Notes: a model not told the origin generated them from the sequence alone. Shown: positions 4,354 through 38,061, numbered from the stretch's first letter. The stretch: DNA of 64,000 nt from Candidatus Woesearchaeota archaeon (GCA_016185755.1 JACPMX010000010.1:3863-67862), one strand, 5' to 3'. Numbers and translations are program-made.

Positions 4354-5475
4354 TTATGATATTGCCCTTACCTCCTGTCCTGTTTTCTGCTCGAGAGCGA
4401 CTGCCCTGTTGTACCTGTCAGTTCCGCAGCATTCGTAATGCCAAAGCTCTGCAGAATATCTTCTGAAGCCTGCCTTGTACATTACCCCTTCAAGCTCTTT
4501 CCAGTCTGCAACCGTCATTGTTTTTTTGAACCTGACATCAACGGCTTTTCCGCTCATGTGCGGGCATGAAGCAAGCCCCTTATTGGGATTGCAGACATAC
4601 TTTGCTCTTTCCGCATCAGTTGGGAATCTTTGCGCGTATTTTTCAGGAGTCCTTCCTTCCCACAGGTCTCTTTGCTCCTGCTCAGACCTGAAAGCTGAAT
4701 AAACCTCAAGTTCTTTCCCTTTTTCCTTTGCAATCCTTTGCGCATCGGCTGCTTTTTGGTAAGCTTCTAATGTCAGCCTGCATTTGATTCCTTTTGCGCA
4801 CAAATTCTCGTCGCTAAAGTCCTTGAAGCCTGAAATCTCCTGCAGAGTGGGCATCTGCTCCGGGCCGATTATTCTTTTCTCTTCTTTGGGAATTCGCTTC
4901 AGCGTCTCTTCTTTCTTCTTTATGCTTTCATCCTTCAGAATCTCAAATTTCAATGGATCTTTCGAAATACCGATAATTTCTGTGCTGCCCCTTATGTCAT
5001 AGATATAGTTGTTAAGCTGGATTTCTGAAGGGTAATTGGCAATGTATCCGCTGAATTTTTCATTGAACTGCAGCTCAAGGTTTAATTTTATTTTATTCTC
5101 GCTGAAGCAGTCAACACCTTTGTCATTCCATAGGAAATAGCCGTAATATTTTCCGCACTCTTTAATTGGAGAATGCAGGGTTGGGTGCTCTCTTGGAGTC
5201 AGGATTTCGCTTGCATAAACCTCGCTTAATCCCCCGTCTCTCGCAAGGTCGTAAACTGCCTGCTGCAAAGAATACTTTGCTGACTGGTCGATGTAAAACA
5301 AGGCTCCCTCGGCTTTCATGTAAACTTTGAGCAGTGTGAATTGCCTGTCTCCGATCGGGGAGCTGGAAAACGTCCCTGTCTTTGACAAAAGAACAATAAA
5401 CAAGTAAATCAGGATTAATGATGACAGAATAACCAGTAAAGGCAGGAAAAAAAATGATGCTTTTTTATTTTTCAT
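4354..5475 (-). CDS. membrane-anchored peptidase M15 (VanY / D-Ala-D-Ala carboxypeptidase-like) domain protein
   Basis: 373 aa. N-terminal TM segment. C-terminal domain has CPHMSGKAVD (the H-x2-G-x-A-x-D zinc-ligand motif) and ELWH (E-x-x-H), the VanY/M15 signature. Confidence 0.6.
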   Translation of the reverse strand: MKNKKASFFFLPLLVILSSLILIYLFIVLLSKTGTFSSSPIGDRQFTLLKVYMKAEGALFYIDQSAKYSLQQAVYDLARDGGLSEVYASEILTPREHPTLHSPIKECGKYYGYFLWNDKGVDCFSENKIKLNLELQFNEKFSGYIANYPSEIQLNNYIYDIRGSTEIIGISKDPLKFEILKDESIKKKEETLKRIPKEEKRIIGPEQMPTLQEISGFKDFSDENLCAKGIKCRLTLEAYQKAADAQRIAKEKGKELEVYSAFRSEQEQRDLWEGRTPEKYAQRFPTDAERAKYVCNPNKGLASCPHMSGKAVDVRFKKTMTVADWKELEGVMYKAGFRRYSAELWHYECCGTDRYNRAVALEQKTGQEVRAIS

Positions 5476-25097: not shown

Positions 25098-25137
25098 ATA
25101 AATATTTTAGCCGCTTTTTATATAAAGCTATTGCTGC

Positions 25138-25155
25138 TTCCATGCGAAATGAAGG
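25138..25155 (+). promoter_or_regulatory. ORB-like element TTCCATGCGAAATGAAGG followed by a G-string
   Basis: Exact copy of the 18-mer at the cdc6 promoter, followed by GGG. It sits 41 bp upstream of the Rpp30-like start and 193 bp upstream of tbp. Confidence 0.5.
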
Positions 25156-25347
25156 GGGCATATTTCTTCAAAAATCCATTTTGCGATCGCTCTATTTAAA
25201 AACAAAAGTATTTATAAATAAATCCACTTTATAAATATTTATAAAGAAATTACATAAAAAGAGCTGATTTAAAGCCTTATAGGTTTATTGGGGGTGTTTT
25301 AAGGCTTTATCAATGGAATTAACTATTAATAATCGGAGGAATCTAAA

Positions 25348-25902
25348 ATGGTAAAGAAAGAAACCAAAAGAGACATAAAAGTAGTTAATATAGTAGTTTC
25401 TACGTCTTTAAAGCACGATATACCGCTTGAAAAGATGGCTGCGACATTAAGCAACACTGAATACAATCCCGAGCAGTTTCCCGGGCTTGTAATAAGGATA
25501 AAAGAGCCTAAAACATCCGCTTTGATATTCTCAAGCGGCAAAGTGGTCTGCACAGGCGCAAGGTCAATGGACAAGGTGGAGGAGAGCATAAAGAAGATAA
25601 TAAAGAGCCTGGAAAAGATAAATGTGAAGATAACCATAAAGCCTGAAATCAAGATACAGAACATTGTCGCATCAGGCAGCGTTGGCATGGACCTTAACCT
25701 GAATACTTTGGCCATGAAGCTTGAAAATACAGAGTACGAGCCGGAGCAGTTTCCAGGGTTGGTCTACAAGCTGGCTGCTGCAAAGGCAACTTTCCTGTTG
25801 TTTAGCAACGGAAAAGTCGTTTGCACTGGAACAAAAAGCGAGAAGGAAGTGCATGCAGCCCTGGATAAGCTGATTGAAAACCTGAAAAGGGTAAAGGCCT
25901 GA
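25348..25902 (+). CDS. tbp: TATA-box binding protein
   Basis: 184 aa. Two direct repeats, each containing NTEY(N/E)PEQFPGLV and SGKVVCTG. Confidence 0.95.
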   Translation: MVKKETKRDIKVVNIVVSTSLKHDIPLEKMAATLSNTEYNPEQFPGLVIRIKEPKTSALIFSSGKVVCTGARSMDKVEESIKKIIKSLEKINVKITIKPEIKIQNIVASGSVGMDLNLNTLAMKLENTEYEPEQFPGLVYKLAAAKATFLLFSNGKVVCTGTKSEKEVHAALDKLIENLKRVKA

Positions 25903-26090: not shown

Positions 26091-26131
26091 CCATGCAAGA
26101 TATTTAAAGGGCAAAAACAAAGTTGGTGATC

Positions 26132-28156
26132 ATGGAAATAAATGCTATAGAGCAGATAAAGAGGTTCCAGGAATTTATAGACAGCAATTACTATAATTCG
26201 CTGCTCGAGAATGCAAGGAAAGGGACCAAGTCGCTGCTTATAGATTTCTCGGAGCTTTCAAAATACGACCCTGATTTGGCTACAGAGCTCCTTGATTCCC
26301 CGGAAGAAACCATAAAGGCAATTGAAAAATCGATTGAGCAGTTTGACGTCGACGGCCTGGCAGATTTCAGGATCCGGTTTAATAACCTGCCCCTGACCCA
26401 GCATGTAATGATAAGAGACATCAGGAGCAAGCACATAAACAGGCTTCTCTTTATAGAAGGGCTGATAAGGCAGAAATCCGATGTAAGGCCCCAGGTCACA
26501 TCTGCAAGGTTTGAATGCCCTATGTGCGGCAACATAATGAATGTGCTGCAGCTTGAAGGCACATTCAAGGAGCCGACAAAGTGCGGCTGCGGAAGAAAAG
26601 GGAAATTTATCATGCTTGACAAGGATCTTGTTGATGCCCAGGGCATCGTGCTCGAAGAGGCTTCTGAAAATTTGCAAGGAGGGGAGCAGCCGAAGCGCAT
26701 AAGCGTTCTTCTGACAGACGATCTTGTCAGCCCGTTGAGCGAGAAAAGGACTTCTCCGGGGAGCAAGGTGCAGGTTTTTGGAATTGTGAAGGAAGTGCCT
26801 ATTATATCAAAATCCGGGGCAAAATCAACAAGGTTTGACCTGATGATTGATGCCAATTACATACAGCCGACAGAAGACACTTTTTATGAAGTCAATATAA
26901 CTGAGGATGAAGAAAAGCAGATTCTCGAAATTGCAAACGATCCTAAAGGCTACGACAAGTTGGTGAACTCGATTGCCCCTTCAATTTATGGCTATGAAAA
27001 GGTAAAGGAAGCTTTATTGCTCCAACTGATGGGCGGTGTAAGAAAAACAAGGACAGACAGCGTGGTGAGCAGGGGTGATATGCATATTTTGCTGGTTGGC
27101 GACCCTGGATCTGGAAAATCAGCATTGCTGAAAAGAATAACGCAAATTGCGCCAAAAGGCCGCTATGTGAGCGGAAAAGGGGTTAGCGGTGCGGGCATTA
27201 CGGCAGCTGTTGTAAGGGACGAGTTTTTGAGGGGATGGGCATTGGAAGCCGGTGCAATGGTCCTCAGCAGCGACGGCCTTGTGTGTGTTGACGAGCTTGA
27301 CAAGATGAGCTCTGAAGACAGGGCAGCTATGCACGAGGCTCTTGAAAATCAGACTGTCAGCATATCAAAGGCAAACATACAGGCCACCCTGATAGCAAGG
27401 ACTACCGTGCTTGCGGCAGCCAATCCGAAATTTGGAAGATTTGATCCTTATGGGGTTATTGCAGACCAGATTGACTTGCCTCCGACATTGATCAACAGGT
27501 TCGACTTGATATTTCCGATAAAGGATTTGCCAGAGGAAACAAGGGACGAGAGAATGGCAAAGCATATCCTTACATTGCATCAGAATCCTGACATACAGGA
27601 GCCTGAGATATCGACTGATATTTTGAGGAAATTCGTGGCTTATGCAAGGCAAAGAGTCTCTCCAAAGCTGACAGAAGGGGCTTTGGAAGAGATAAAGGAA
27701 TTTTACTTGAAGATGAGGAGAAGCGGCAGCGGCGGGGAAAGCGGCATACATGCAGTGCCTATTTCTGCAAGGCAGCTTGAGGCATTGGTCAGGCTGAGCG
27801 AGGCATCTGCAAGGTCCAGGCTGGATGACAGGGTTACAAGAAGGGATTCAAAAAAGGCAATAGAGCTTCTTGATTATTGCCTGATGCAGATTGGGCTTGA
27901 CAAGGAAACCGGAAAGATAGACATAGACAGGCTTGCAACCGGAATAGCTGCAACACAGAGAAGCCACATAATGGTTGTCAAGGACATCATAGGCGAGCTT
28001 GAGGTTAAGCTTGGAAAATCAATTCCTGTAGAGGAAGTTTTTGCCGAGGCAAGAACAAGGAACCTGGACGAGGACAAGGTGGAGGAAGCCCTTGAAAGGC
28101 TGAAGCGTTCGGGTGACATTTTTGAGCCGAAAAGGGGATTTTTGAGCAGGATATAA
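26132..28156 (+). CDS. mcm: MCM replicative helicase
   Basis: Zn finger CPMCGN...CGCG. Walker A GDPGSGKS. Walker B CVDELDKM. Arginine finger region. C-terminal winged helix. The track start at 26123 is TTG, so I use the ATG at 26132. Confidence 0.95.
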   Translation: MEINAIEQIKRFQEFIDSNYYNSLLENARKGTKSLLIDFSELSKYDPDLATELLDSPEETIKAIEKSIEQFDVDGLADFRIRFNNLPLTQHVMIRDIRSKHINRLLFIEGLIRQKSDVRPQVTSARFECPMCGNIMNVLQLEGTFKEPTKCGCGRKGKFIMLDKDLVDAQGIVLEEASENLQGGEQPKRISVLLTDDLVSPLSEKRTSPGSKVQVFGIVKEVPIISKSGAKSTRFDLMIDANYIQPTEDTFYEVNITEDEEKQILEIANDPKGYDKLVNSIAPSIYGYEKVKEALLLQLMGGVRKTRTDSVVSRGDMHILLVGDPGSGKSALLKRITQIAPKGRYVSGKGVSGAGITAAVVRDEFLRGWALEAGAMVLSSDGLVCVDELDKMSSEDRAAMHEALENQTVSISKANIQATLIARTTVLAAANPKFGRFDPYGVIADQIDLPPTLINRFDLIFPIKDLPEETRDERMAKHILTLHQNPDIQEPEISTDILRKFVAYARQRVSPKLTEGALEEIKEFYLKMRRSGSGGESGIHAVPISARQLEALVRLSEASARSRLDDRVTRRDSKKAIELLDYCLMQIGLDKETGKIDIDRLATGIAATQRSHIMVVKDIIGELEVKLGKSIPVEEVFAEARTRNLDEDKVEEALERLKRSGDIFEPKRGFLSRI

Positions 28157-28157
28157 A

Positions 28158-28775
28158 ATGCCAGAGCTAGAGCAGAAAACATTCCAGAGGCAGGTAGCCT
28201 ACAAAATCAGGATTTCCGATATACTTGACAGTTCCTTGAAAAAGGACGAGACTTCTGCAGGCTATATTATTTTAAATGGCATGAACGTGTCAAGAGTCAA
28301 TATAATTGCAACCGTGGTTTATATTTCTGAAGATTCCGGCTTCAGGAGCACCCTGATTGATGACGGCACAGGCAGGATATCATTGAGGGCTTTCGATAAC
28401 TCTAATCTTTTCTCTGCTCTTGAAATAGGGGATGTTGTACTGATGGTCGGGAAAATAAGGGAATTCAGCAATGACAAGTACATCATGCCCGAAATACTCA
28501 AGAAGCTCGGCGATACAGGATGGCTGGGACTGAGAAAAGCTGAATTGGACAGGCTGCCTGATATAAAGGGTGAATCCCAAAAGCCTGATGAGGCAGTAAA
28601 TACCGGCGAGCATATCTATTCATTGATCAGGTCGCTTGACATTGGCGACGGTGTGCCAATAGAGGATATAATTAAGAAATCAAATGATTCTATGGCAGAA
28701 AAAATTATCAGCAGGCTGCTTGAGAGCGGTGATATTTTTGAAGTGAGGCCCGGCATGCTTAAAGTTCTAGAATAA
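28158..28775 (+). CDS. OB-fold nucleic-acid-binding protein coupled to mcm
   Basis: 205 aa. Starts 1 nt after the mcm stop. VNIIATVVYISE...LIDDGTGRISLRAFD...GDVVLMVGKIREF is an OB-fold pattern of RPA/SSB type. C-terminal helical region. Confidence 0.5.
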   Translation: MPELEQKTFQRQVAYKIRISDILDSSLKKDETSAGYIILNGMNVSRVNIIATVVYISEDSGFRSTLIDDGTGRISLRAFDNSNLFSALEIGDVVLMVGKIREFSNDKYIMPEILKKLGDTGWLGLRKAELDRLPDIKGESQKPDEAVNTGEHIYSLIRSLDIGDGVPIEDIIKKSNDSMAEKIISRLLESGDIFEVRPGMLKVLE

Positions 28776-30268: not shown

Positions 30269-30829
30269 TTAATGATGAGTAATAGCATTTTTCCAGATGG
30301 CGTCTTCAAGTACTCCTTCCCTAAATAATCTTTCCAGCTCTCCAGGTGGGCAGTCTTTATCTCTCAAAGATATTCGTAATAAATCCCTATCGGGTTTTTT
30401 GTGAACGTACCCTGCACGTTTCATACATTCAATGATCTCCCCTTCTTGATTAATTGTGTAGCCATCAAATATTATAGTTCTTCTAAATATAATATCATAT
30501 TCAACAACCTGCGATAAAACAAAGGATCCTTTTGCGCTAGGAATTGTTGATTCGGCGTGCTCTATTAGTTTAGCTGCATCAGCCTCACTTCTAACTATCG
30601 AAGGATGGTCTGAAACTTTTATTTTGTTGCTATTTTCAGGTTCCAAAAACCTTCTGACATTTTTCGCGGCCGCAAGAAATCTTCTGAGCTCTTCTCCTGA
30701 TGTTGCCTTGGGATCTAATTTACCTTCCCCAACAGACTCAAAATCTGCACACCAGCCTACATACAAACATAGTTCTGTGTATTCCATAAACTTCAGCAGA
30801 AATAGATAGGGTTTTAAAAACCTACCCAA
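30269..30829 (-). CDS. hypothetical protein downstream of PolD large subunit
   Basis: 186 aa with no recognised motif. Overlaps the DP2 stop by 8 nt. An alternative start is 30787. Confidence 0.4.
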   Translation of the reverse strand: MGRFLKPYLFLLKFMEYTELCLYVGWCADFESVGEGKLDPKATSGEELRRFLAAAKNVRRFLEPENSNKIKVSDHPSIVRSEADAAKLIEHAESTIPSAKGSFVLSQVVEYDIIFRRTIIFDGYTINQEGEIIECMKRAGYVHKKPDRDLLRISLRDKDCPPGELERLFREGVLEDAIWKNAITHH

Positions 30830-33800
30830 ACCACCTGTTCAATCCTTCCTGCCTGTCTTTGTCTTTTCCGAAAACGCCCTCGACCCTGCTTTTTGTCAGC
30901 TCCAGGACCTGCTTGAGATAAGGCGGGAGGTTGTACTTGTCAGACAATGATATTGCCGGCTCAAGGTATTTTATTATCGAGCCCTCGCTTACCGTGAACA
31001 TCAGCTTGCTCCCGCATGCAAGGCATTTCCCGGTAAGCGGCGGCCTCCGGTATTTCTCCGTGCATTTGCTGCACCTGAATTCCTGCATCGAGAACCTCCT
31101 TAAATTGCCTTTGATGTCTCTCAATAAATGCTTCTCTATCACGAGCCTCGCGACATCGGCCGCGTCAACAGCCCTTATCTTGTCCGCAAGCTCCATCTGC
31201 CCCTTTAATTTGTCCTCCATCGAGGGGATGGTCTTGTAAGAAGAGCATTTGACTCCGATGTTTATGTTGCTCACAGGATGGGTATACCATATCCTTCCCA
31301 GCTGGCCTGAATTCATTATGTTTGCAAACCTTTCTATCTTTACATTCCATGGCAGCTCATAGCGCAGCGTTGCCTCGTAAAATTCCAGGGGATACCTGCT
31401 CACAATGTCCACATCAAATATCATGTCGTCAACTTCTGTCGGCACAAGCTTTGATGTCAAAACCAATGGCGCATCCTGCGTCGAGCCTCTTGTGTTTGGC
31501 AGGAACTGCCTTGAGAAATTAAGCAGAACATCCATGAGCAAAGTCACTGATGCTTCGTCCCCGTCGCAGTCCCTTCTTGTTGCAGCGTGCATCAGCGGAT
31601 GCGCATAGAAGGCCTGTGTTTTTGAAAACCCTATTATCCTCCCGACTATGCCCGCTGAAGTATGCGGCGCCAGGGCCACCACCAGGTGCCCCACAAGATC
31701 CTTCCATGATTCCAGGTTATAAAATTTTTCCAGGCCGTAAAGCGACGCCAAAAGCTCGTCTATGAACTGGCTCACGTTGTAGAGTATCTTGTCAGCTCCA
31801 AGTTCCGGAGCGTCTTCGCATTTTGGAAGTATGATATCCTGCGGCTTCAGTTCCAGTATTTGCTCCGCATCTTCAAGCTCATTTTCATAAATGTCCTTGG
31901 TATAGCCCAGATTTTTAAGCTCCTCTACAGAAGTCCCTATCTCTTTTGGCTTGAAATGGGTTATGGGCAGCTGGGTCATGTCATACCTTGTGGTGCCGTC
32001 TTTATTGACAGGCACATCATGCTTTGCCCTCAGGATTCCCTTTGCGAAATGCTCTATGACATGGTCTTTGTTTGACGTGCCCCTTACTCCCTTTATCAGG
32101 TCCGGGTACTGCTGCATGCCTAATTTCTTCAGCGTCTTTTTGAAATAATTGTTTATGTCTATTCTTTGCTTCTTGTAAAGGTCTGCATTTCCATGGGGGC
32201 ATTTTCCATCTGGAACCGTGCCGCATGCGCTGCAGTATCCCTGCCTGCCTGCTTTCTTGTCGCATTGCTCGCAGACGCTGAATATTGTCTCTTTCCTGCA
32301 TCCGCTGCAAAAATATATCGGAAATTCCGCCTCAACCGAGCCGAATTCCATCGCGCTCTGGAAGGACCTCATCTTGCCGCCTTCCTTGCCTATAGGAAAA
32401 AGAGTATGCGGGTCCCCGTCAAGCTTCCTGGCTTTTGCCTTTTCCGGCCTCCCCATCCTTGCCCCGATGAATGTTCCTGACTTGTCCCTCATTTTTATTT
32501 CAGAAATTGAATTTATGATGTCAAGGACATCCTCGAGCTCGCTTGCAATGAGTTTGCTGTGAAATTCATTGTTGCAAATGAATAGCTTATGCAGTATTCC
32601 TGCCGTGTCCCCTTCAATCACCGTAAGTTCATTGTTGATAAAAGTGTGTGGAACCCCTGCCAATTCCAGCACTCTTTTTGCAACTTCGTTTTTTGGCAGG
32701 ACTATTTTTTTGATGTCATCTCCTTCCGATTCTGCCTCCCCTTCTTTCAGCCACTTTGCCAGCTCTATGAAATTTTCCTTTGACAGGGTTTTCCAGTGGA
32801 AAGTGTAGCATGGGTGAAGTGGTATCCCAAGTGCCTGGCTCAGTTTTATTGCAACTCCTGCTGAAGGCTTCTCAAAGAAATAATCTTTGGCCAGTTTTTC
32901 TAGATGCCCTGATTCGATGCCTACCCATTCAGACAGCTTTTCATAATCCACCGAGCCGAATTTTTCGGATATTGCTTTCTCGAATTCCAGTGCCCACCAT
33001 TCCTCGCAATACCCTGCAGGAACTAAAGTATGCGCCCTGTTGAAGAAATCGCCGTAGTTTATCAGTATGTCCCCCAAGAAAATTATTTCCTTGACTGAAT
33101 TGGAATATTGTTTTGCCTGCTGCTCGCTTTCTATCTTTACGACGCTGTTGTCATTCAGCTTTATGATTGGGCCTTCAATTGAGTCACAAACCGTTATGGC
33201 TGTTGCCTTGCCCGGCCTTTCAACTTTCAATTGCGTGCCGATTGCTATGTACTTGTTCAGTATAATCATTGTAGCAGGGTGTATTGCCGTTGCCGAGTAT
33301 CCTGAAGTCCTGCACCTGCCGTATCTCAGCCTCAGACCTCCTGGCATAAGGGGGTGGGTAAGCACCGGCCTTCCGGCAACTAAATCCTGTATGTAAGTGT
33401 AGATTGGGACAATCCCTTTCTTCGCTGTTTTTTCTTTTGCCTTCATTTCTTTTTGCAGATGGACGAATTCCTGCAGGAATGCCCAGTGCTCCAGATTGAA
33501 TTCTTCACCCCATTTTTTGAGTTGTGTCCACACTTTTGCAGCTTTCTGCGCTACACATTCCCCAAGTACAAGGCACGGGCCGCTCCTTATCCTGTTTGTC
33601 TCTATTCTTTCGATGTCCTTGTAATTGGAGACTTCTATGTCTTCTGACGCATCCCCGTCGATCTGCACGGGCAGGTTGCCCACAAGAAATCTTATTTCCT
33701 TTTCGCTTGGAAGATACTGCAGATTTGTGACCCTCTCATGATAATCATAAAGCTCTGTAACCATTCTCCTTATTTCCTTTTCCGACGGGTCATATACATC

Positions 33801-34310
33801 ATATCCCATGGATTTCCTGATGTAATCTGCTATGACGACGCTTGCCGCCCCTGCCGTTCCTCCTGCGCTCCTTATAGGTCCGGAATACATCAGGCAGAAA
33901 TATTCCTTGTTGTCCTTCCTTTTGTTTATCTTCAGGCCTACAAATCCTTCGAGGGGCGATGCCACAATGCCGAGAGTCATGTACGCAAGCCCTATCCTGA
34001 TTCCTGTTTCGATTGCCTCTGTTTGTGTGCCGAATTTGCAGAATTTTTCCTGTGCTGTTTCAAGTGATATTTTAAGCGCAACTCTCCAGTCTAGCTTCCC
34101 GTAGCTTGCCTCAAGTTCTTTTATCCTTTGGGGTATCCCCTTGTTTGTTATTTTAGGCGCTGAAACGCTTACAAGCCCCTCCACCCTTTCTGCCATGTCT
34201 TTTGCAAGCGGTATGTTTACCGTATCTTCGGGATCGTACCCTTTTGCCCTTGCCTCGTTTGCAGCTTTGTATGCTGCATTTACATTTTCAAGTATTCCAG
34301 CCTTCATCAT
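30822..34310 (-). CDS. DNA polymerase II (PolD) large subunit DP2
   Basis: 1162 aa. Cys clusters CSGCRKET...CEQCDK and CSACGTVPDGKCPHG. Full-length match to the archaeal DP2 catalytic subunit. No intein-sized insertion. Confidence 0.95.
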   Translation of the reverse strand: MMKAGILENVNAAYKAANEARAKGYDPEDTVNIPLAKDMAERVEGLVSVSAPKITNKGIPQRIKELEASYGKLDWRVALKISLETAQEKFCKFGTQTEAIETGIRIGLAYMTLGIVASPLEGFVGLKINKRKDNKEYFCLMYSGPIRSAGGTAGAASVVIADYIRKSMGYDVYDPSEKEIRRMVTELYDYHERVTNLQYLPSEKEIRFLVGNLPVQIDGDASEDIEVSNYKDIERIETNRIRSGPCLVLGECVAQKAAKVWTQLKKWGEEFNLEHWAFLQEFVHLQKEMKAKEKTAKKGIVPIYTYIQDLVAGRPVLTHPLMPGGLRLRYGRCRTSGYSATAIHPATMIILNKYIAIGTQLKVERPGKATAITVCDSIEGPIIKLNDNSVVKIESEQQAKQYSNSVKEIIFLGDILINYGDFFNRAHTLVPAGYCEEWWALEFEKAISEKFGSVDYEKLSEWVGIESGHLEKLAKDYFFEKPSAGVAIKLSQALGIPLHPCYTFHWKTLSKENFIELAKWLKEGEAESEGDDIKKIVLPKNEVAKRVLELAGVPHTFINNELTVIEGDTAGILHKLFICNNEFHSKLIASELEDVLDIINSISEIKMRDKSGTFIGARMGRPEKAKARKLDGDPHTLFPIGKEGGKMRSFQSAMEFGSVEAEFPIYFCSGCRKETIFSVCEQCDKKAGRQGYCSACGTVPDGKCPHGNADLYKKQRIDINNYFKKTLKKLGMQQYPDLIKGVRGTSNKDHVIEHFAKGILRAKHDVPVNKDGTTRYDMTQLPITHFKPKEIGTSVEELKNLGYTKDIYENELEDAEQILELKPQDIILPKCEDAPELGADKILYNVSQFIDELLASLYGLEKFYNLESWKDLVGHLVVALAPHTSAGIVGRIIGFSKTQAFYAHPLMHAATRRDCDGDEASVTLLMDVLLNFSRQFLPNTRGSTQDAPLVLTSKLVPTEVDDMIFDVDIVSRYPLEFYEATLRYELPWNVKIERFANIMNSGQLGRIWYTHPVSNINIGVKCSSYKTIPSMEDKLKGQMELADKIRAVDAADVARLVIEKHLLRDIKGNLRRFSMQEFRCSKCTEKYRRPPLTGKCLACGSKLMFTVSEGSIIKYLEPAISLSDKYNLPPYLKQVLELTKSRVEGVFGKDKDRQEGLNRWFG

Positions 34311-34312
34311 TT

Positions 34313-35806
34313 TTATTGCCCGAATTTGAGTATTTTTATGTCTCTCGTCTGCAAATTCACGATCGGGACCCTGCTCGGTTCCGGATTATGCCCAACTTTT
34401 TCCTGGAAGCTGGTCTTGCCCTGCCAGCAGCTTCCGCAGATCAGTGTGGTGTTTCTGTAATTTGCCGTAGCTGTTTTGTGTATGTGCCCGCTCAGGAAAA
34501 AATCAGGGACCTTTTCTATCACAAGCGGGTCTTTCTTGGTGTCTGGGATGTAAAGTGTTGAAAGGTGGGATGGTGCCAAGTGCCTCCTTTTCAGTAAAAA
34601 TTTCATGATTAAGTCTGCCCGGTCATACCCTCCCTGGTTCCTGAGCGAATCCACCTCGGCAACAAAATAGTCAAATGAGTATCCATGGTACATCATCACG
34701 TCAAATCCTGCAAAGTTTGCAGATGAGCTGATGTTGACCATTGAAGGGTTTGACACCATGATTGCATTGTTAAGCTCGTACATCGGCGCTGCAAAGTTTC
34801 TCGACAACGGCGGCTGCGGCTCTGAAATTCTTATTGCATCATGGTTCCCGGGGCAAATTACCAAGGGGATATTATTGGGTATCTGCTTGAGCAGCTCTGC
34901 GCATTCCCTGTATTGCTGGTAGATGTCTTTTATGGAAAGCTCCTTGTCCTGCTCGGGGTAAATTCCGCAGCCGTCAACCAGGTCTCCTGCAATGAATATG
35001 CATTCAACATTTTTTGCTATGTGCCTTTGCTGCTCATTGCCGGCCTCGCAGTTTATCCACCTGAGGAATTTTTCAAAATCGTCGGGCAGGAATTTGGACG
35101 ATCCGACATGAAGGTCTGACAGGAACAGTGCATATTTTTCCTGCTCTGATTTTTTAAGCTCCTTGCTTGAGGGAGTGTCCGGCCAGACAATGCTGTTGGC
35201 GAATATCATAGTTTCCGCATTCACCCCAGTGATCCCTATCACTTCGTCCATAACCAGGTCTTTCGCTTCCTTGAATAGGTCCGGCCTGTTCTTATTGACA
35301 AGAACCCTCTTCCTTCCCGTCGGGTCTTCAAGCATCAAAAGCATATTGCCGTTCTTCGTCACTTGCTTGTCGCTGACCATTCCAATGATTGTTATTTTCT
35401 CTTTCTCTTTTTTGTTCTGTATCTTGTTTAATGAAATTGTATTTTTAAGCTCCTGGTGCTGCTTGAGTATTTTTTCCATTGCCTTGTACCTGTTGTTGAA
35501 GTAATCGGCAAAATCCTGTGTTTCCCTTTTTTTCGGCTCTTCCTTGTGTGAAAAAATGACCTTGACTTTTTCTCCGGTCTTCTCAATATATCCCTCCGCT
35601 AATTTTTCAGGTTGGGGCTCTTCTATAAGCCTGCCGAGCTCCAGGCCCAGCACTGCAGAATCAGTGTGCTTTGATTTGAGCAATTCAAAAAGTTTGGAAA
35701 TATGGTTGTAATCTTTTATCTCCAGCAGCTTGGGGCTGATTAAAACGCCGTTTTTCAGGCACGTGTCTATGATCTCGCGCTTCTTTTTGATGATTTCTTC
35801 CTGCAT
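34313..35806 (-). CDS. DNA polymerase II (PolD) small subunit DP1
   Basis: 497 aa. Calcineurin-like phosphoesterase motifs GDLVD and CPGNHD. N-terminal OB region. Confidence 0.9.
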   Translation of the reverse strand: MQEEIIKKKREIIDTCLKNGVLISPKLLEIKDYNHISKLFELLKSKHTDSAVLGLELGRLIEEPQPEKLAEGYIEKTGEKVKVIFSHKEEPKKRETQDFADYFNNRYKAMEKILKQHQELKNTISLNKIQNKKEKEKITIIGMVSDKQVTKNGNMLLMLEDPTGRKRVLVNKNRPDLFKEAKDLVMDEVIGITGVNAETMIFANSIVWPDTPSSKELKKSEQEKYALFLSDLHVGSSKFLPDDFEKFLRWINCEAGNEQQRHIAKNVECIFIAGDLVDGCGIYPEQDKELSIKDIYQQYRECAELLKQIPNNIPLVICPGNHDAIRISEPQPPLSRNFAAPMYELNNAIMVSNPSMVNISSSANFAGFDVMMYHGYSFDYFVAEVDSLRNQGGYDRADLIMKFLLKRRHLAPSHLSTLYIPDTKKDPLVIEKVPDFFLSGHIHKTATANYRNTTLICGSCWQGKTSFQEKVGHNPEPSRVPIVNLQTRDIKILKFGQ

Positions 35807-35807
35807 T

Positions 35808-37013
35808 TTATGACCTTACATTATCTTCCAGGATTGTTTTTATTTTTGGCAGCACTGTTTCGGAAATTTCAACTGATATTTCCCTTGTCCTGCCGTATCT
35901 TCCCTTCGATATTACTTTCGCGTTGACTATGCCGAGCATGTCAAATTCAGATATGATGTCTGAGACGCGCCTCTGTGTGAGTGTGCTCGTGTTGGTCTTG
36001 CCGCACAATGACTTGTATATCTCATAAACTTCGCCGGTGAATATGCTGTTTCCCCTCCCTTTCCTTAGGGAAAGTATTGAATAAAGCACAAGCTGGTACT
36101 GCTTTGGCTGTGTTGTGACTATGTCTATTATCCTGTCCCGGTCTATTTTTTCCTCTGCCTCGTCTATGTGGCTTATTGTGATTTTTCTGGAATTTTTCCT
36201 GTCAGCCACCTCTCCGGCAACCCTCAGCAGCTCAAGCGCCCTCCTTGCATCGCCGTGGTCCCTTGCAGCATATGCTGCGCATTTTTCCACCACTCCGTGC
36301 TCAAGGACATCCTTGTTGAATGCGAGCTCTGCCCTCTGCTTGAGTATTGCCTGTATCTGCAGCGCGTTGTATGGCGGGAAAACAACTTCTTCTTCAGAAA
36401 GCGATGACCTCACCCTTGGGTCAAGGTTATCAACAAACATTATGTCGTTGGATATCCCGATTATCGAGATTTGTGATTCTGTGTCTTCATTCATCCTTGT
36501 GAGGTTATAAAGGACGCTGTCTCCGGTTTTGTTTATTAGCTGGTCTATCTCGTCCAGAATCAGAATATAGTTCTGCTCGTTTTTGTTTACTGCCCTTAAA
36601 AACGCCTTGTAAATCTCTTCAGTAGGCAATCCCGTAGCCGGCAAGGACTTTCCAAGCTCTGTGGCCAGCTGCGCAATCAGCCTGTATTCCGTGTCTGCGC
36701 TTCTTTTAAGCTTGCAGTTGATATACAAAACCCGGATAGGTATGTTTTCCTTTTCAGCTATTTCCAGCAGTTTTTTTGTTGTGTGCTTGATTGTAAGTGT
36801 TTTTCCTGTGCCGGTTTTCCCGTAAATGAATATATTGGATGGTTTGTCCCTTTTTAGTGCCGGAGCAAGTATATTAGCGATTTGTTTTGTTTGTTCTTCC
36901 CTGTGAGGTATTGTTTCGGGTATATAACCTGATTGAAGCACTTTTTTGTCAAAAAAGACGCTTTCTTTTCTTAGAAATACCTCAAAGAAACCATCCAACC
37001 CCTTTTCAGTCAT
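35808..37013 (-). CDS. cdc6: Orc1/Cdc6 replication initiator
   Basis: AAA+ Walker A IYGKTGTGKT and Walker B LILDEID. C-terminal winged helix. I place the start at the second Met (MTEKG) because the first 11 codons of the track ORF overlap an ORB-like repeat. Confidence 0.9.
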   Translation of the reverse strand: MTEKGLDGFFEVFLRKESVFFDKKVLQSGYIPETIPHREEQTKQIANILAPALKRDKPSNIFIYGKTGTGKTLTIKHTTKKLLEIAEKENIPIRVLYINCKLKRSADTEYRLIAQLATELGKSLPATGLPTEEIYKAFLRAVNKNEQNYILILDEIDQLINKTGDSVLYNLTRMNEDTESQISIIGISNDIMFVDNLDPRVRSSLSEEEVVFPPYNALQIQAILKQRAELAFNKDVLEHGVVEKCAAYAARDHGDARRALELLRVAGEVADRKNSRKITISHIDEAEEKIDRDRIIDIVTTQPKQYQLVLYSILSLRKGRGNSIFTGEVYEIYKSLCGKTNTSTLTQRRVSDIISEFDMLGIVNAKVISKGRYGRTREISVEISETVLPKIKTILEDNVRS

Positions 37014-37017
37014 GCTT

Positions 37018-37035
37018 TTCCATGCGAAATGAAGG
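37018..37035 (+). promoter_or_regulatory. ORB-like element TTCCATGCGAAATGAAGG (copy 1 at cdc6)
   Basis: Identical 18-mer to 25138-25155. It resembles an archaeal origin recognition box of the TCCA-N4-GAAATGAA type, as I recall the consensus. It lies immediately upstream of the cdc6 start. Confidence 0.6.
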
Positions 37036-37065
37036 TATTTAAACATTTCCTTTACTCTCGCTACC

Positions 37066-37083
37066 CCTTCATTTCTTATGGAA
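37066..37083 (-). promoter_or_regulatory. ORB-like element, inverted copy (16/18 match)
   Basis: CCTTCATTTCTTATGGAA on the plus strand is the reverse complement of the 18-mer with 2 mismatches. It is separated from the first copy by 30 nt. Confidence 0.5.
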
Positions 37084-37281
37084 CCGGTTTCTTTTTGTTT
37101 TTTGTTATATGATATAATATCTATCTATATAGAAAATAAATAAGGTAACACAAAAACAAAAAAAAGAAAAAACAAATTCCAATGGAAATAATGGGGTGAG
37201 CACGGTAATTTTTTATTTATTTATCACTTAATAATAATAAAAACAGTAATATTTTTAAACAAAAGACACATACCCAAAAAC
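37084..37281. other. AT-rich tract, putative DNA unwinding element of oriC
   Basis: About 200 bp of roughly 75% AT lying between the ORB pair at cdc6 and the trmB-like gene. Confidence 0.45.
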
Positions 37282-38061
37282 ATGCCCACACCAACAACAG
37301 AAAAACAGCTCAGGAATTTGGGGTTGAACCTTTACGAAGTGAAGATCTGGGCTGCTTTATTGAGCAGGGGGGTTTCCACAGCAGGGGAGCTGAGCGACAT
37401 AGCCAATGTCCCGAGGTCAAGAAGCTATGACGTGCTTGAAAGCCTTGAGAAAAAGGGGTTTGTGATCATGAAGCCCGGAAAACCGGCACAGTATACTTCA
37501 ATACCCCCGAACGAAGCAATTGAAAAAACAAAGAAAAGAGCACGGGAAGAAACAAGGCTGGAAATAAGCAATTTAAACAACCCACAAGGTAAAAAAATTT
37601 TATCAAACTTGAAAAAATTACATGCGCAAGGACTTAAACATGTGGATTCACCAGACCTTTCCGGATCCCTGAAAGGCAGAACCAACATATACAATCATAT
37701 GGAAAACATGTTTAAAAGAGCAAACACCCAAATAATTATAGCAGCGGCACAAAAGGAGCTGGAAAACATTGCAGATCATTTTAATGTGCTCTTTGAGCAA
37801 CTCCACAGGAAAAATATCAAAATAAAACTTTTGACACAGCCAGGCGCAAAAGCCGGAGAGAATATGGCAAGGCTTGCAGGCATGGCAGAAACCACAAATA
37901 TTGGGAGCAATGCAAGATTCTGCATCGTTGACGGCAGGGAAATTATATTTATGGTGGGGGATGGCAATGAAGTCCATCCGGCTTATGATTTTGGGGTATG
38001 GGTGACCACCCCATTAGCCAAAGATATGGAAGAAGTGTGCTTAAGGAAGGTAAATTCATAA
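37282..38061 (+). CDS. TrmB-family transcriptional regulator
   Basis: 259 aa. N-terminal wHTH LGLNLYEVKIWAALLSRGVSTAGELSDIANVPRSRSYDVLESLEKKGFV. Confidence 0.7.
   Translation: MPTPTTEKQLRNLGLNLYEVKIWAALLSRGVSTAGELSDIANVPRSRSYDVLESLEKKGFVIMKPGKPAQYTSIPPNEAIEKTKKRAREETRLEISNLNNPQGKKILSNLKKLHAQGLKHVDSPDLSGSLKGRTNIYNHMENMFKRANTQIIIAAAQKELENIADHFNVLFEQLHRKNIKIKLLTQPGAKAGENMARLAGMAETTNIGSNARFCIVDGREIIFMVGDGNEVHPAYDFGVWVTTPLAKDMEEVCLRKVNS

Follow-up and report, generated by a model that had tools for sequence, protein, structure and literature searches.

Where on its chromosome does a woesearchaeon start replication, and does the DNA in front of its initiator gene hold the start site? The question is raised by a 268-bp intergenic gap (positions 37014-37281) in a 64-kb chromosomal fragment of Candidatus Woesearchaeota (DPANN/Nanobdellota), here called the window. 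The gap lies upstream of the operon for the initiator Orc1/Cdc6 and polymerase D (PolD), and an earlier note on this DNA had proposed it as a candidate replication origin. DPANN archaea are uncultivated, and hardly any work exists on how they control replication. We consider it likely that the gap is a chromosomal replication origin of the oriC1 type, intertwined with the promoter from which the initiator operon is transcribed. Comparative evidence supports the origin reading of the earlier note; the pair of repeats on which that note relied, however, brackets the orc1 TATA box and not the AT-rich element to be unwound. Judged by its sequence, the locus has all the features of an Orc1-1/ORB (oriC1-type) archaeal origin, because an Orc1-1-type gene is adjacent, three origin recognition boxes (ORBs) carry the dyad and the G-string, two of these are inverted around an 81% AT tract, and the layout is conserved in about 80 species. 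Less ordinary are a box that is likely an autoregulatory operator (ORB-a), a lineage-specific palindrome at the centre of the origin, and a conserved ORB at the genes for TBP and MCM. To our knowledge, and going by our literature searches, this origin has not been described before for Woesearchaeota.

The gap abuts the initiator gene itself, and a regulator gene diverges from its other end. The flanking genes are as follows.

35808..37013, minus strand: orc1/cdc6 initiator gene of the Orc1-1 type, 401 aa (Pfam Cdc6_C, Cdc6_lid and AAA domains).
34313-35806, minus strand: DP1, the small subunit of PolD (Pfam).
30822-34310, minus strand: DP2, the large subunit of PolD (Pfam).
37282..38061, plus strand: divergent TrmB-family (TrmBL2-like) winged helix-turn-helix gene, 259 aa (Pfam TrmB).

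The first three genes form one operon, orc1-DP1-DP2, with DP1 and DP2 together at 30822..35806 on the minus strand; the Pfam matches bear out the three genes as the earlier note had read them. The initiator is 100% identical to, and of the same length as, an NCBI protein labeled Woesearchaeota ORC1 (P0001), and hundreds of relatives with 78-85% identity carry the same label. Its full-length AAA+, lid, and winged-helix (wH) architecture and its equivalog-level similarity (a score of 510.7 against NCBIfam NF001625, cut-off 501) place it in the Orc1-1 clade. The best PDB matches were Sulfolobus solfataricus (Sso) Orc1-1 (2QBY_A; 1e-106) and Aeropyrum pernix ORC1 (2V1U; 1e-99), and the match to Orc1-3 was far weaker (2e-47). 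These two closest solved relatives are ORB-binding proteins that were crystallised on ORB DNA, and the wH recognition helix of the window protein (TQRRVSDII) is identical to that of Sso Orc1-1. The supported start codon is the ATG at 37013, which yields 401 aa, as in the database protein, with homologues of 400-402 aa. Both repeat arms are accordingly upstream of the gene, rather than on either side of its start as had been thought. An alternative upstream ATG at 37046 was rejected, as it abuts the conserved TATA box and the surrounding sequence is not conserved as coding.

Three ORBs occupy the gap, and a fourth lies elsewhere in the window. The scores in the following lines come from a 24-nt position weight matrix that was built solely from the boxes of other species and scanned over the 64 kb.

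37018..37035, plus strand: ORB-a, the promoter-proximal box, TTCCATGCGAAATGAAGG, without a full G-string (22.2 bits).
37063..37083, minus strand: ORB-b, TTCCATAAGAAATGAAGGGGT, with a full G-string, at the left boundary of the duplex-unwinding element (DUE) and with its TTCCA end toward it (32.7 bits, the best in the window).
37084..37176, no strand: putative DUE, AT-rich, 93 bp, 80.6% AT, consisting of a T-rich half, a central palindrome, and an A-rich half.
37177..37197, plus strand: ORB-c, TTCCAATGGAAATAATGGGGT, at the right boundary of the DUE and inverted relative to ORB-b (27.5 bits).
25138..25158, plus strand: ORB-d, TTCCATGCGAAATGAAGGGGG, a solitary box (25.2 bits).

The core of these boxes is TTCCA-N3-GAAATGAA, as in Pyrococcus furiosus ORB1 and ORB2, and differs from the TCCA-N4 form given in the earlier note. 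The repeat pair described there is real: the arm at 37066-37083, part of ORB-b, reads TTCCATAAGAAATGAAGG on the minus strand, with 2 mismatches to the 18-mer TTCCATGCGAAATGAAGG at 37018-37035 (ORB-a). The third box at 37177-37197 and the exact copy of the 18-mer at 25138-25155 had been overlooked. With up to 3 mismatches allowed, the 18-mer matched three times in the window against 0.12 expected, a number that 0 of 100 shuffles reached. A 20-nt degenerate pattern of ORB plus G-string matched 5 times against 0.64 expected in the shuffle control. The weight matrix returned exactly four matches of at least 20 bits in the 64 kb (37017-37040, plus strand; 37061-37084, minus strand; 37176-37199, plus strand; 25137-25160, plus strand), three of which fell in the gap upstream of orc1. 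The next-best score in the window was 12.4 bits. Chance similarity in an AT-rich intergenic spacer might be argued from the 13-nt core alone, which, at one mismatch or fewer, is not enriched (15 matches in the window versus 12.3 expected). The significance of the boxes stems from the full 21- to 24-nt box and not from this short core, and chance is refuted by the shuffle controls, by scores of 22-33 bits for the three repeated boxes (each with a TTCC...GAA dyad core and G-string) over a background of about 12 bits or less, and by a position and orientation kept in about 80 species. We give it practically no weight. An exact core match at 5126 was dismissed; its G-side is missing, its score is below 10 bits, and the surrounding sequence appears to be coding.

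ORB-b and ORB-c face each other, with their TTCCA ends inward and their GGGGT strings outward. Together with the DUE, they make up an origin core of 139 bp (37061-37199). The roughly 200-bp AT-rich tract reported earlier was found at 37084-37281 (198 bp, 77.8% AT versus 56.4% for the window), and only 0.09% of 198-nt windows equal it. The putative DUE would occupy the first 93 bp of this tract, between the two boxes, and 0.16% of 93-nt windows are as AT-rich; the rest contains ORB-c as well as promoter DNA of the divergent trmB-like gene. A slightly longer core of 145 nt (37058-37202) is an imperfect dyad over its whole length and, folded as a single strand, has a z-score of -4.5. A search of Rfam with E values up to 1 over 24.0-38.5 kb gave no match in either intergenic region (this one or the one holding ORB-d), so a known noncoding RNA is not the explanation.

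The layout is shared by relatives. Scanning a genome collection with Orc1 gave 80 loci from different Woesearchaeota/Nanoarchaeota metagenome-assembled genomes (Orc1 identity of 57-84%). Nearly all of them have, upstream of the orc1 ATG, the order C(-), AT-rich gap, B(+), TATA, A(-), ATG, which is the arrangement of the window. Box A is antisense, at about -17/-27 from the ATG, in 54 loci by core scan (consensus TTCCAnAnGAAATgnAGG-TATTTAAA); box B is in sense orientation, at about -70, in 62 loci; and box C is antisense at -180 to -470, in 44 loci by core scan and in most loci by the weight matrix. At least two inverted ORBs flank an AT-rich DUE in 69 loci, as they do in the window. The other 590 kb of the loci contained only 13 matches of at least 16 bits, mostly farther upstream in a few species with expanded origins. 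Between B and C, the gap has a median length of 125 bp and a mean AT content of 83.5%, compared to 63% for the loci, and it is T-rich beside C and A-rich beside B in 54 of 66-68 loci. Gene order is retained as well: DP1 follows orc1 in 78 of the 80 related loci and DP2 in 69, and the upstream neighbour of orc1 is nearly always divergent (a trmB-like gene in 38/80 loci, the L3 operon in 17). Some lineages carry additional strong ORBs (20-29 bits) 860-3000 nt upstream of orc1 (L044, L045, L050, L058, L075, and L077), which suggests expanded or split origins or a gene inserted into the origin region.

The frequent trmB neighbour allows a different reading of the boxes, namely that they are repeats bound by another protein, such as the adjacent TrmB-family regulator, and resemble ORBs by chance. 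Such a gene often diverges from orc1 (in the 38 loci above), and TrmB-family proteins bind dyad sites. The boxes nevertheless persist where no trmB is adjacent (e.g., L012, L017, L020, L021, L024, L029, and L031), the wH recognition helix of Orc1 is the same as in Sso Orc1-1, and the motif is the same as the Pyrococcus ORB core for which binding was shown by experiment, TTCCA-N3-GAAATGAA plus G-string (PMC1904270). We regard binding by a protein other than Orc1 as very improbable.

ORB-a raises the question of transcription. An alignment of 36 close species over the 125 nt preceding orc1 located the promoter.

37036..37043, minus strand: TATA box of the orc1 operon, TTTAAATA, with GAAAAT resembling a B recognition element before it (conserved block aAAAt.TTTAaATACC in the 36-species alignment).

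This TATA box is 22 nt from the ATG. Since the usual archaeal distance from TATA box to transcription start site is about 26 nt, the orc1 mRNA is predicted to be leaderless. ORB-a sits between the TATA box and the ATG; its G-side runs directly into the TATA box, and the resulting junction (AGG-TATTTAAA) is likewise conserved. Because it is placed between the TATA box and the leaderless start, ORB-a is probably an autoregulatory operator of Orc1. Orc1 bound to it would shut off transcription of orc1-DP1-DP2, as DnaA boxes do in the dnaA promoter.

Could all of the boxes then be transcriptional operators for the divergent orc1-PolD and trmB promoters, with replication starting at another place or at no fixed origin? 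The orc1 TATA box has ORB-a on one side and ORB-b on the other, at a strictly conserved spacing of 53 bp, an unpaired ORB upstream of the TBP-MCM promoter makes Orc1 a plausible transcription factor in this lineage, and promoter-regulating Orc1 paralogues that are not initiators are known (Orc1-2; PMC9738581). Operators alone leave unexplained, however, the third, inverted box, ORB-c, on the far side of a DUE-like tract (81-84% AT) at a distance of 90-150 bp, the T-rich/A-rich dyad, and the palindrome, which is confined to the orc1 locus. The geometry also equals that of functionally dissected origins (PMC12141716, PMC3936714). Moreover, ORC1/Cdc6 is reported as single-copy in Nanobdellota (bioRxiv 10.64898/2026.05.13.725050), so a site for this one initiator must exist, and the 64 kb contain no other cluster of boxes. 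A purely operator function for the boxes therefore seems unlikely to us.

A few points do weigh against an origin in the gap. ORB-like boxes are not exclusive to the orc1 locus, as ORB-d upstream of TBP-MCM demonstrates, and because the motif serves this other, probably regulatory, site, the ORB-a/ORB-b signal around the TATA box could be purely transcriptional. At 268 bp, the intergenic region is short compared to many archaeal origins. The comparison of box polarity with Haloarcula hispanica was inferred from mutagenised sequences listed in a figure legend. Finally, although the cumulative GC skew of the window has a minimum at 36-38 kb, a near-equal second minimum is found at 22-25 kb, and the skew is positive at 25-29 kb, to the left of the proposed origin. 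GC and AT skews in the 64 kb follow gene orientation, and comparing the coding-strand skew of co-oriented and head-on genes revealed no consistent replication component. GC skew does not discriminate here, since it tracks the gene strand and has minima at both 22-25 and 36-38 kb.

By analogy with model archaeal origins, we infer how Orc1 binding, MCM loading, autorepression, the palindrome, and firing itself would fit together at this locus. Monomers of the single Orc1-1-type initiator would bind ORB-b and ORB-c with fixed polarity, each with its winged-helix domain on the TTCCA...GAAA dyad beside the DUE and its AAA+/ISM domain on the outward GGGGT string. ATP-bound Orc1 at the inverted boxes would recruit two MCM hexamers onto the 93-bp, 81% AT tract. 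Melting would begin in this tract, and forks would exit both ways, the left one running in the direction of the orc1-PolD operon and the right one in that of the trmB/ribosomal-protein operon (the L3/L4 ribosomal-protein operon, identified by Pfam, follows the divergent TrmB-family gene).

The alignment of the 36 species shows one more invariant block inside the otherwise variable DUE, a palindrome.

37120..37137, no strand: central palindrome, window form TCTATCTATATAGAAAAT, clade consensus TTTTCTATATAGAAAA; the 12-nt core is at 37123-37134, with one mismatch.

When at most one mismatch is allowed, 56 of 75 loci have a single copy of the 12-nt core in the orc1-upstream region; these are all 36 loci whose Orc1 is at least 74% identical and 20 of the 39 more distant ones. 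Elsewhere, it was found 3 times in the other 590 kb of the loci and 2 times in 462 kb of unrelated loci (about 1.05 Mb in total). The palindrome centre is at 37128.5 and the ORB-b/ORB-c midpoint at 37130, so that 45.5 nt separate the centre from the TTCCA end of ORB-b and 48.5 nt from that of ORB-c. In relatives, the corresponding distances cluster near 45/55 and 49/60/70 nt. Helical phasing of these distances is suggestive only: the peak at 10.5-11.5 bp (R of 0.55-0.68) is obtained with all loci, which are phylogenetically related, and is not significant for unique distances (P ~ 0.1).

A short conserved motif midway between inverted ORBs is also a property of origins with the ucm element of Sulfolobus. 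By this analogy, the palindrome would be a positional counterpart of ucm but not a member of the ucm/UBP type. Most likely, a dimeric accessory protein binds the palindrome, positioned between the sites where the two helicases are loaded. The TrmBL2-like protein is a candidate for the binding factor, which we treat as only a lead. In the distant clade, the palindrome co-occurs with an adjacent TrmB-like gene (11/17 versus 2/16; P = 0.004, uncorrected for phylogeny), and it is also present where trmB is not adjacent. The best NCBIfam match of the TrmB-family gene in the window is the nucleoid protein TrmBL2, over the N-terminal part only and below the cut-off. A full-text literature search for the palindrome returned unrelated papers only.

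The distant Woesearchaeota whose loci have no palindrome (L038, L042, L051-L053, L056, L072, and L076) usually have another divergent neighbour, of 336-628 aa. When full length, this protein has about 620 aa and starts with M..KxKTTxEIxxxxxxIDQxIGQ; it looks like a Lon-type ATPase/protease. The B-C gaps of these loci are longer (250-330 bp).

Is the gap at orc1 the only site in the window with a claim to being an origin? ORB-d, the exact copy of the 18-mer extended by GGG, lies between the genes for RNase P p30 (minus strand) and TBP (plus strand), upstream of the following features.

25195..25218, plus strand: promoter-like block TTTAAAAACAAAAGTATTTATAAA, about 35 nt downstream of ORB-d, identical in 10 of 11 aligned species while its flanks have diverged.
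25348-25902, plus strand: TBP (Pfam).
26123-28156, plus strand: MCM (Pfam).
28158-28775, plus strand: OB-fold (RPA/RMI2-like) gene, immediately after MCM (Pfam).

A search with TBP gave 80 metagenomic loci (L081-L160), 72 of which had enough upstream sequence. TBP-MCM synteny is near universal among the 80, and p30 is not a conserved neighbour. One or two ORBs lie within 450 nt upstream of TBP in 51 of the 72 loci, always in TBP sense and never inverted; about 12 loci have two direct copies about 84 bp (or 34 bp) apart. Block TTTAAAAACAAAAGTATTTATAAA, at 4 or fewer mismatches, was found in 44 of the 80 loci.

This 25.1-kb locus, with ORB-d and its AT-rich stretch upstream of TBP-MCM, might be the true origin or an additional one. 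It has an exact copy of the 18-mer with a G-string, it adjoins the helicase gene, its box is kept in the 51 loci just mentioned, the adjacent stretch of 82.8% AT is the most AT-rich 93 nt of the window, and the cumulative skew has a local minimum there. An inverted pair was never seen, though, only one box or two direct boxes; the AT-rich DNA adjoins the end with the G-string, the reverse of what is seen at oriC, and no central palindrome is present. The AT-rich DNA holds the invariant promoter-like block about 35 nt past the ORB, which a regulatory site fits better. An origin at 25.1 kb is decidedly unlikely in our estimation, and the gap at orc1 remains our preferred site. On its sequence context, ORB-d is instead predicted to be an upstream regulatory Orc1 site of the TBP-MCM operon, a better fit than a second origin because the box has no inverted partner and no palindrome and its AT-rich DNA is on the G-string side. 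Titration of the initiator would call for a high-density cluster of boxes, and here ORB-d is single in the window, while relatives carry one box or two at this place. Conservation of this ORB upstream of TBP-MCM suggests that Orc1 may have a second role, as a regulator of the replication machinery. Our literature searches found no report of an archaeal initiator Orc1 regulating the replication machinery.

Other elements were seen upstream of TBP. The conservation of block TTTAAAAACAAAAGTATTTATAAA goes well beyond the needs of a plain promoter, and TBP autoregulation through this block is one possibility. A second repeat, TATTTATAAA, is found at 25233-25246, 25 nt downstream of the block. The 5' leader of TBP can form a stem at about 25283-25325 (AGCCTTA...GGGGGTGTTTTAAGGCT) with an apparent compensatory change in two relatives (AGCCCTA/TAGGGCT in L085 and L088). 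This stem, which has no Rfam match, may be a leader RNA element; a Shine-Dalgarno-like GGAGG precedes the TBP ATG. More widely, the region of 25-37 kb is an island of replication genes with TBP, MCM, the OB-fold gene, aIF2-beta, DP2, DP1, and Orc1. It also includes a 186-aa open reading frame (30269-30829, minus strand) that overlaps the end of DP2 and has no Pfam or NCBIfam match.

Put together, these features allow a wider proposal, which we offer tentatively and consider somewhat doubtful as a whole. The palindrome TTTTCTATATAGAAAA would be an essential, Woesearchaeales-specific centre of the origin, about 45-50 bp (or this plus whole helical turns) from each inverted ORB, bound by a dimeric factor between the MCM loading sites and thus a DPANN counterpart of crenarchaeal ucm/UBP. 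The factor may be the origin-adjacent TrmBL2-like protein, and the single Orc1 may in addition regulate transcription of the orc1-PolD operon (via ORB-a) and the TBP-MCM-OB-fold operon (via ORB-d). If true, Orc1 as a transcription factor would wire the expression of helicase, polymerase, initiator, and TBP to origin occupancy.

The locus provides a compact, sequence-defined model of an origin, 139 bp with three boxes and one palindrome, that is valid over about 80 species. Such a model could be used for orienting genomes, for interpreting coverage-based estimates of growth, and for designing in vitro experiments on Orc1/MCM loading. In a 2026 preprint, ORC1 serves as the point to which 208 complete Nanobdellota genomes are rotated, and the origin itself is not defined there (bioRxiv 10.64898/2026.05.13.725050).

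How does the proposed origin compare to known ones? The neighbourhood of cdc6 followed by DP1 and DP2 is that of oriC in Pyrococcus and other Thermococcales (PMC1904270; PMC4010727). On the reverse strand, the sequence of P. furiosus ORB1 is TTCCAGTGGAAATGAAAC...GGGGGG, and ORB1 and ORB2 as printed give TTCCAGTGGAAATGAAACTCTGGGGGG (PMC1904270). The core TTCCA-N3-GAAATGAA is identical, and both origins have an inverted pair of long ORBs with G-strings; the G-string is 5 bp nearer the core here (GAAATGAA-GGGG) than in Pyrococcus (GAAATGAAACTCT-GGGG). The Pyrococcus origin is about 800 bp long and contains numerous 13-bp mini-ORBs and two AT-rich regions, and a further cluster of ORBs lies inside dp1. 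In contrast, three boxes are contained in 268 bp here, and the weight matrix found nothing above 12 bits in DP1 or DP2, so that there is no Pyrococcus-like cluster inside dp1.

In the minimal oriC1 of H. hispanica, both ORBs and both G-strings are essential; the left G-string is CCCCCC and the right one GGGGGGGG, both face outward, and the AAA+ domain contacts them (PMC3936714). They are longer than the G-strings described here. Additional conserved inverted elements inside the ORB pair modulate activity in H. hispanica, where they are G-rich repeats beside each ORB that act as an enhancer, whereas the inner element here is a central AT palindrome. An initiator that doubles as a regulator of the replication machinery is well known in the case of DnaA. 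Initiator boxes that lie in the promoter of the initiator gene itself (ORB-a) and at another locus, away from the origin (ORB-d), are reminiscent of the DnaA boxes of the dnaA promoter and of datA/oriC2D (PMC3936714). Unlike oriC2D with its 11 ORBs, ORB-d amounts to a box or a pair of boxes just ahead of a promoter and thus looks like a regulatory site, not a titration sink.

The likeness to Sulfolobus (Saccharolobus) oriC1 is broad. That origin has three ORBs; two of them, ORB2 and ORB3, flank the DUE in inverted orientation within a core of 130 bp, each of the two being essential (PMC12141716; Robinson et al. 2004 as cited there). Both origins are directly upstream of orc1-1, have three ORBs with two inverted around an AT-rich DUE, and have cores of similar length (139 bp here versus about 130 bp). 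Both also have a short conserved motif in the middle of the DUE, and the Sulfolobus initiator is the closest solved relative of the one in the window (2QBY_A). The 11-bp ucm, midway in the Sulfolobus DUE, is an essential element to which UBP binds, and this protein is reported to be confined to Sulfolobales and Desulfurococcales (PMC12141716). The central motif here differs from ucm in being a perfect palindrome of 14-16 bp that is specific to Woesearchaeales, and the third ORB differs in being embedded between the orc1 TATA box and the start codon. Where Sulfolobus has three origins, the woesearchaeal chromosome has one initiator and presumably one origin.

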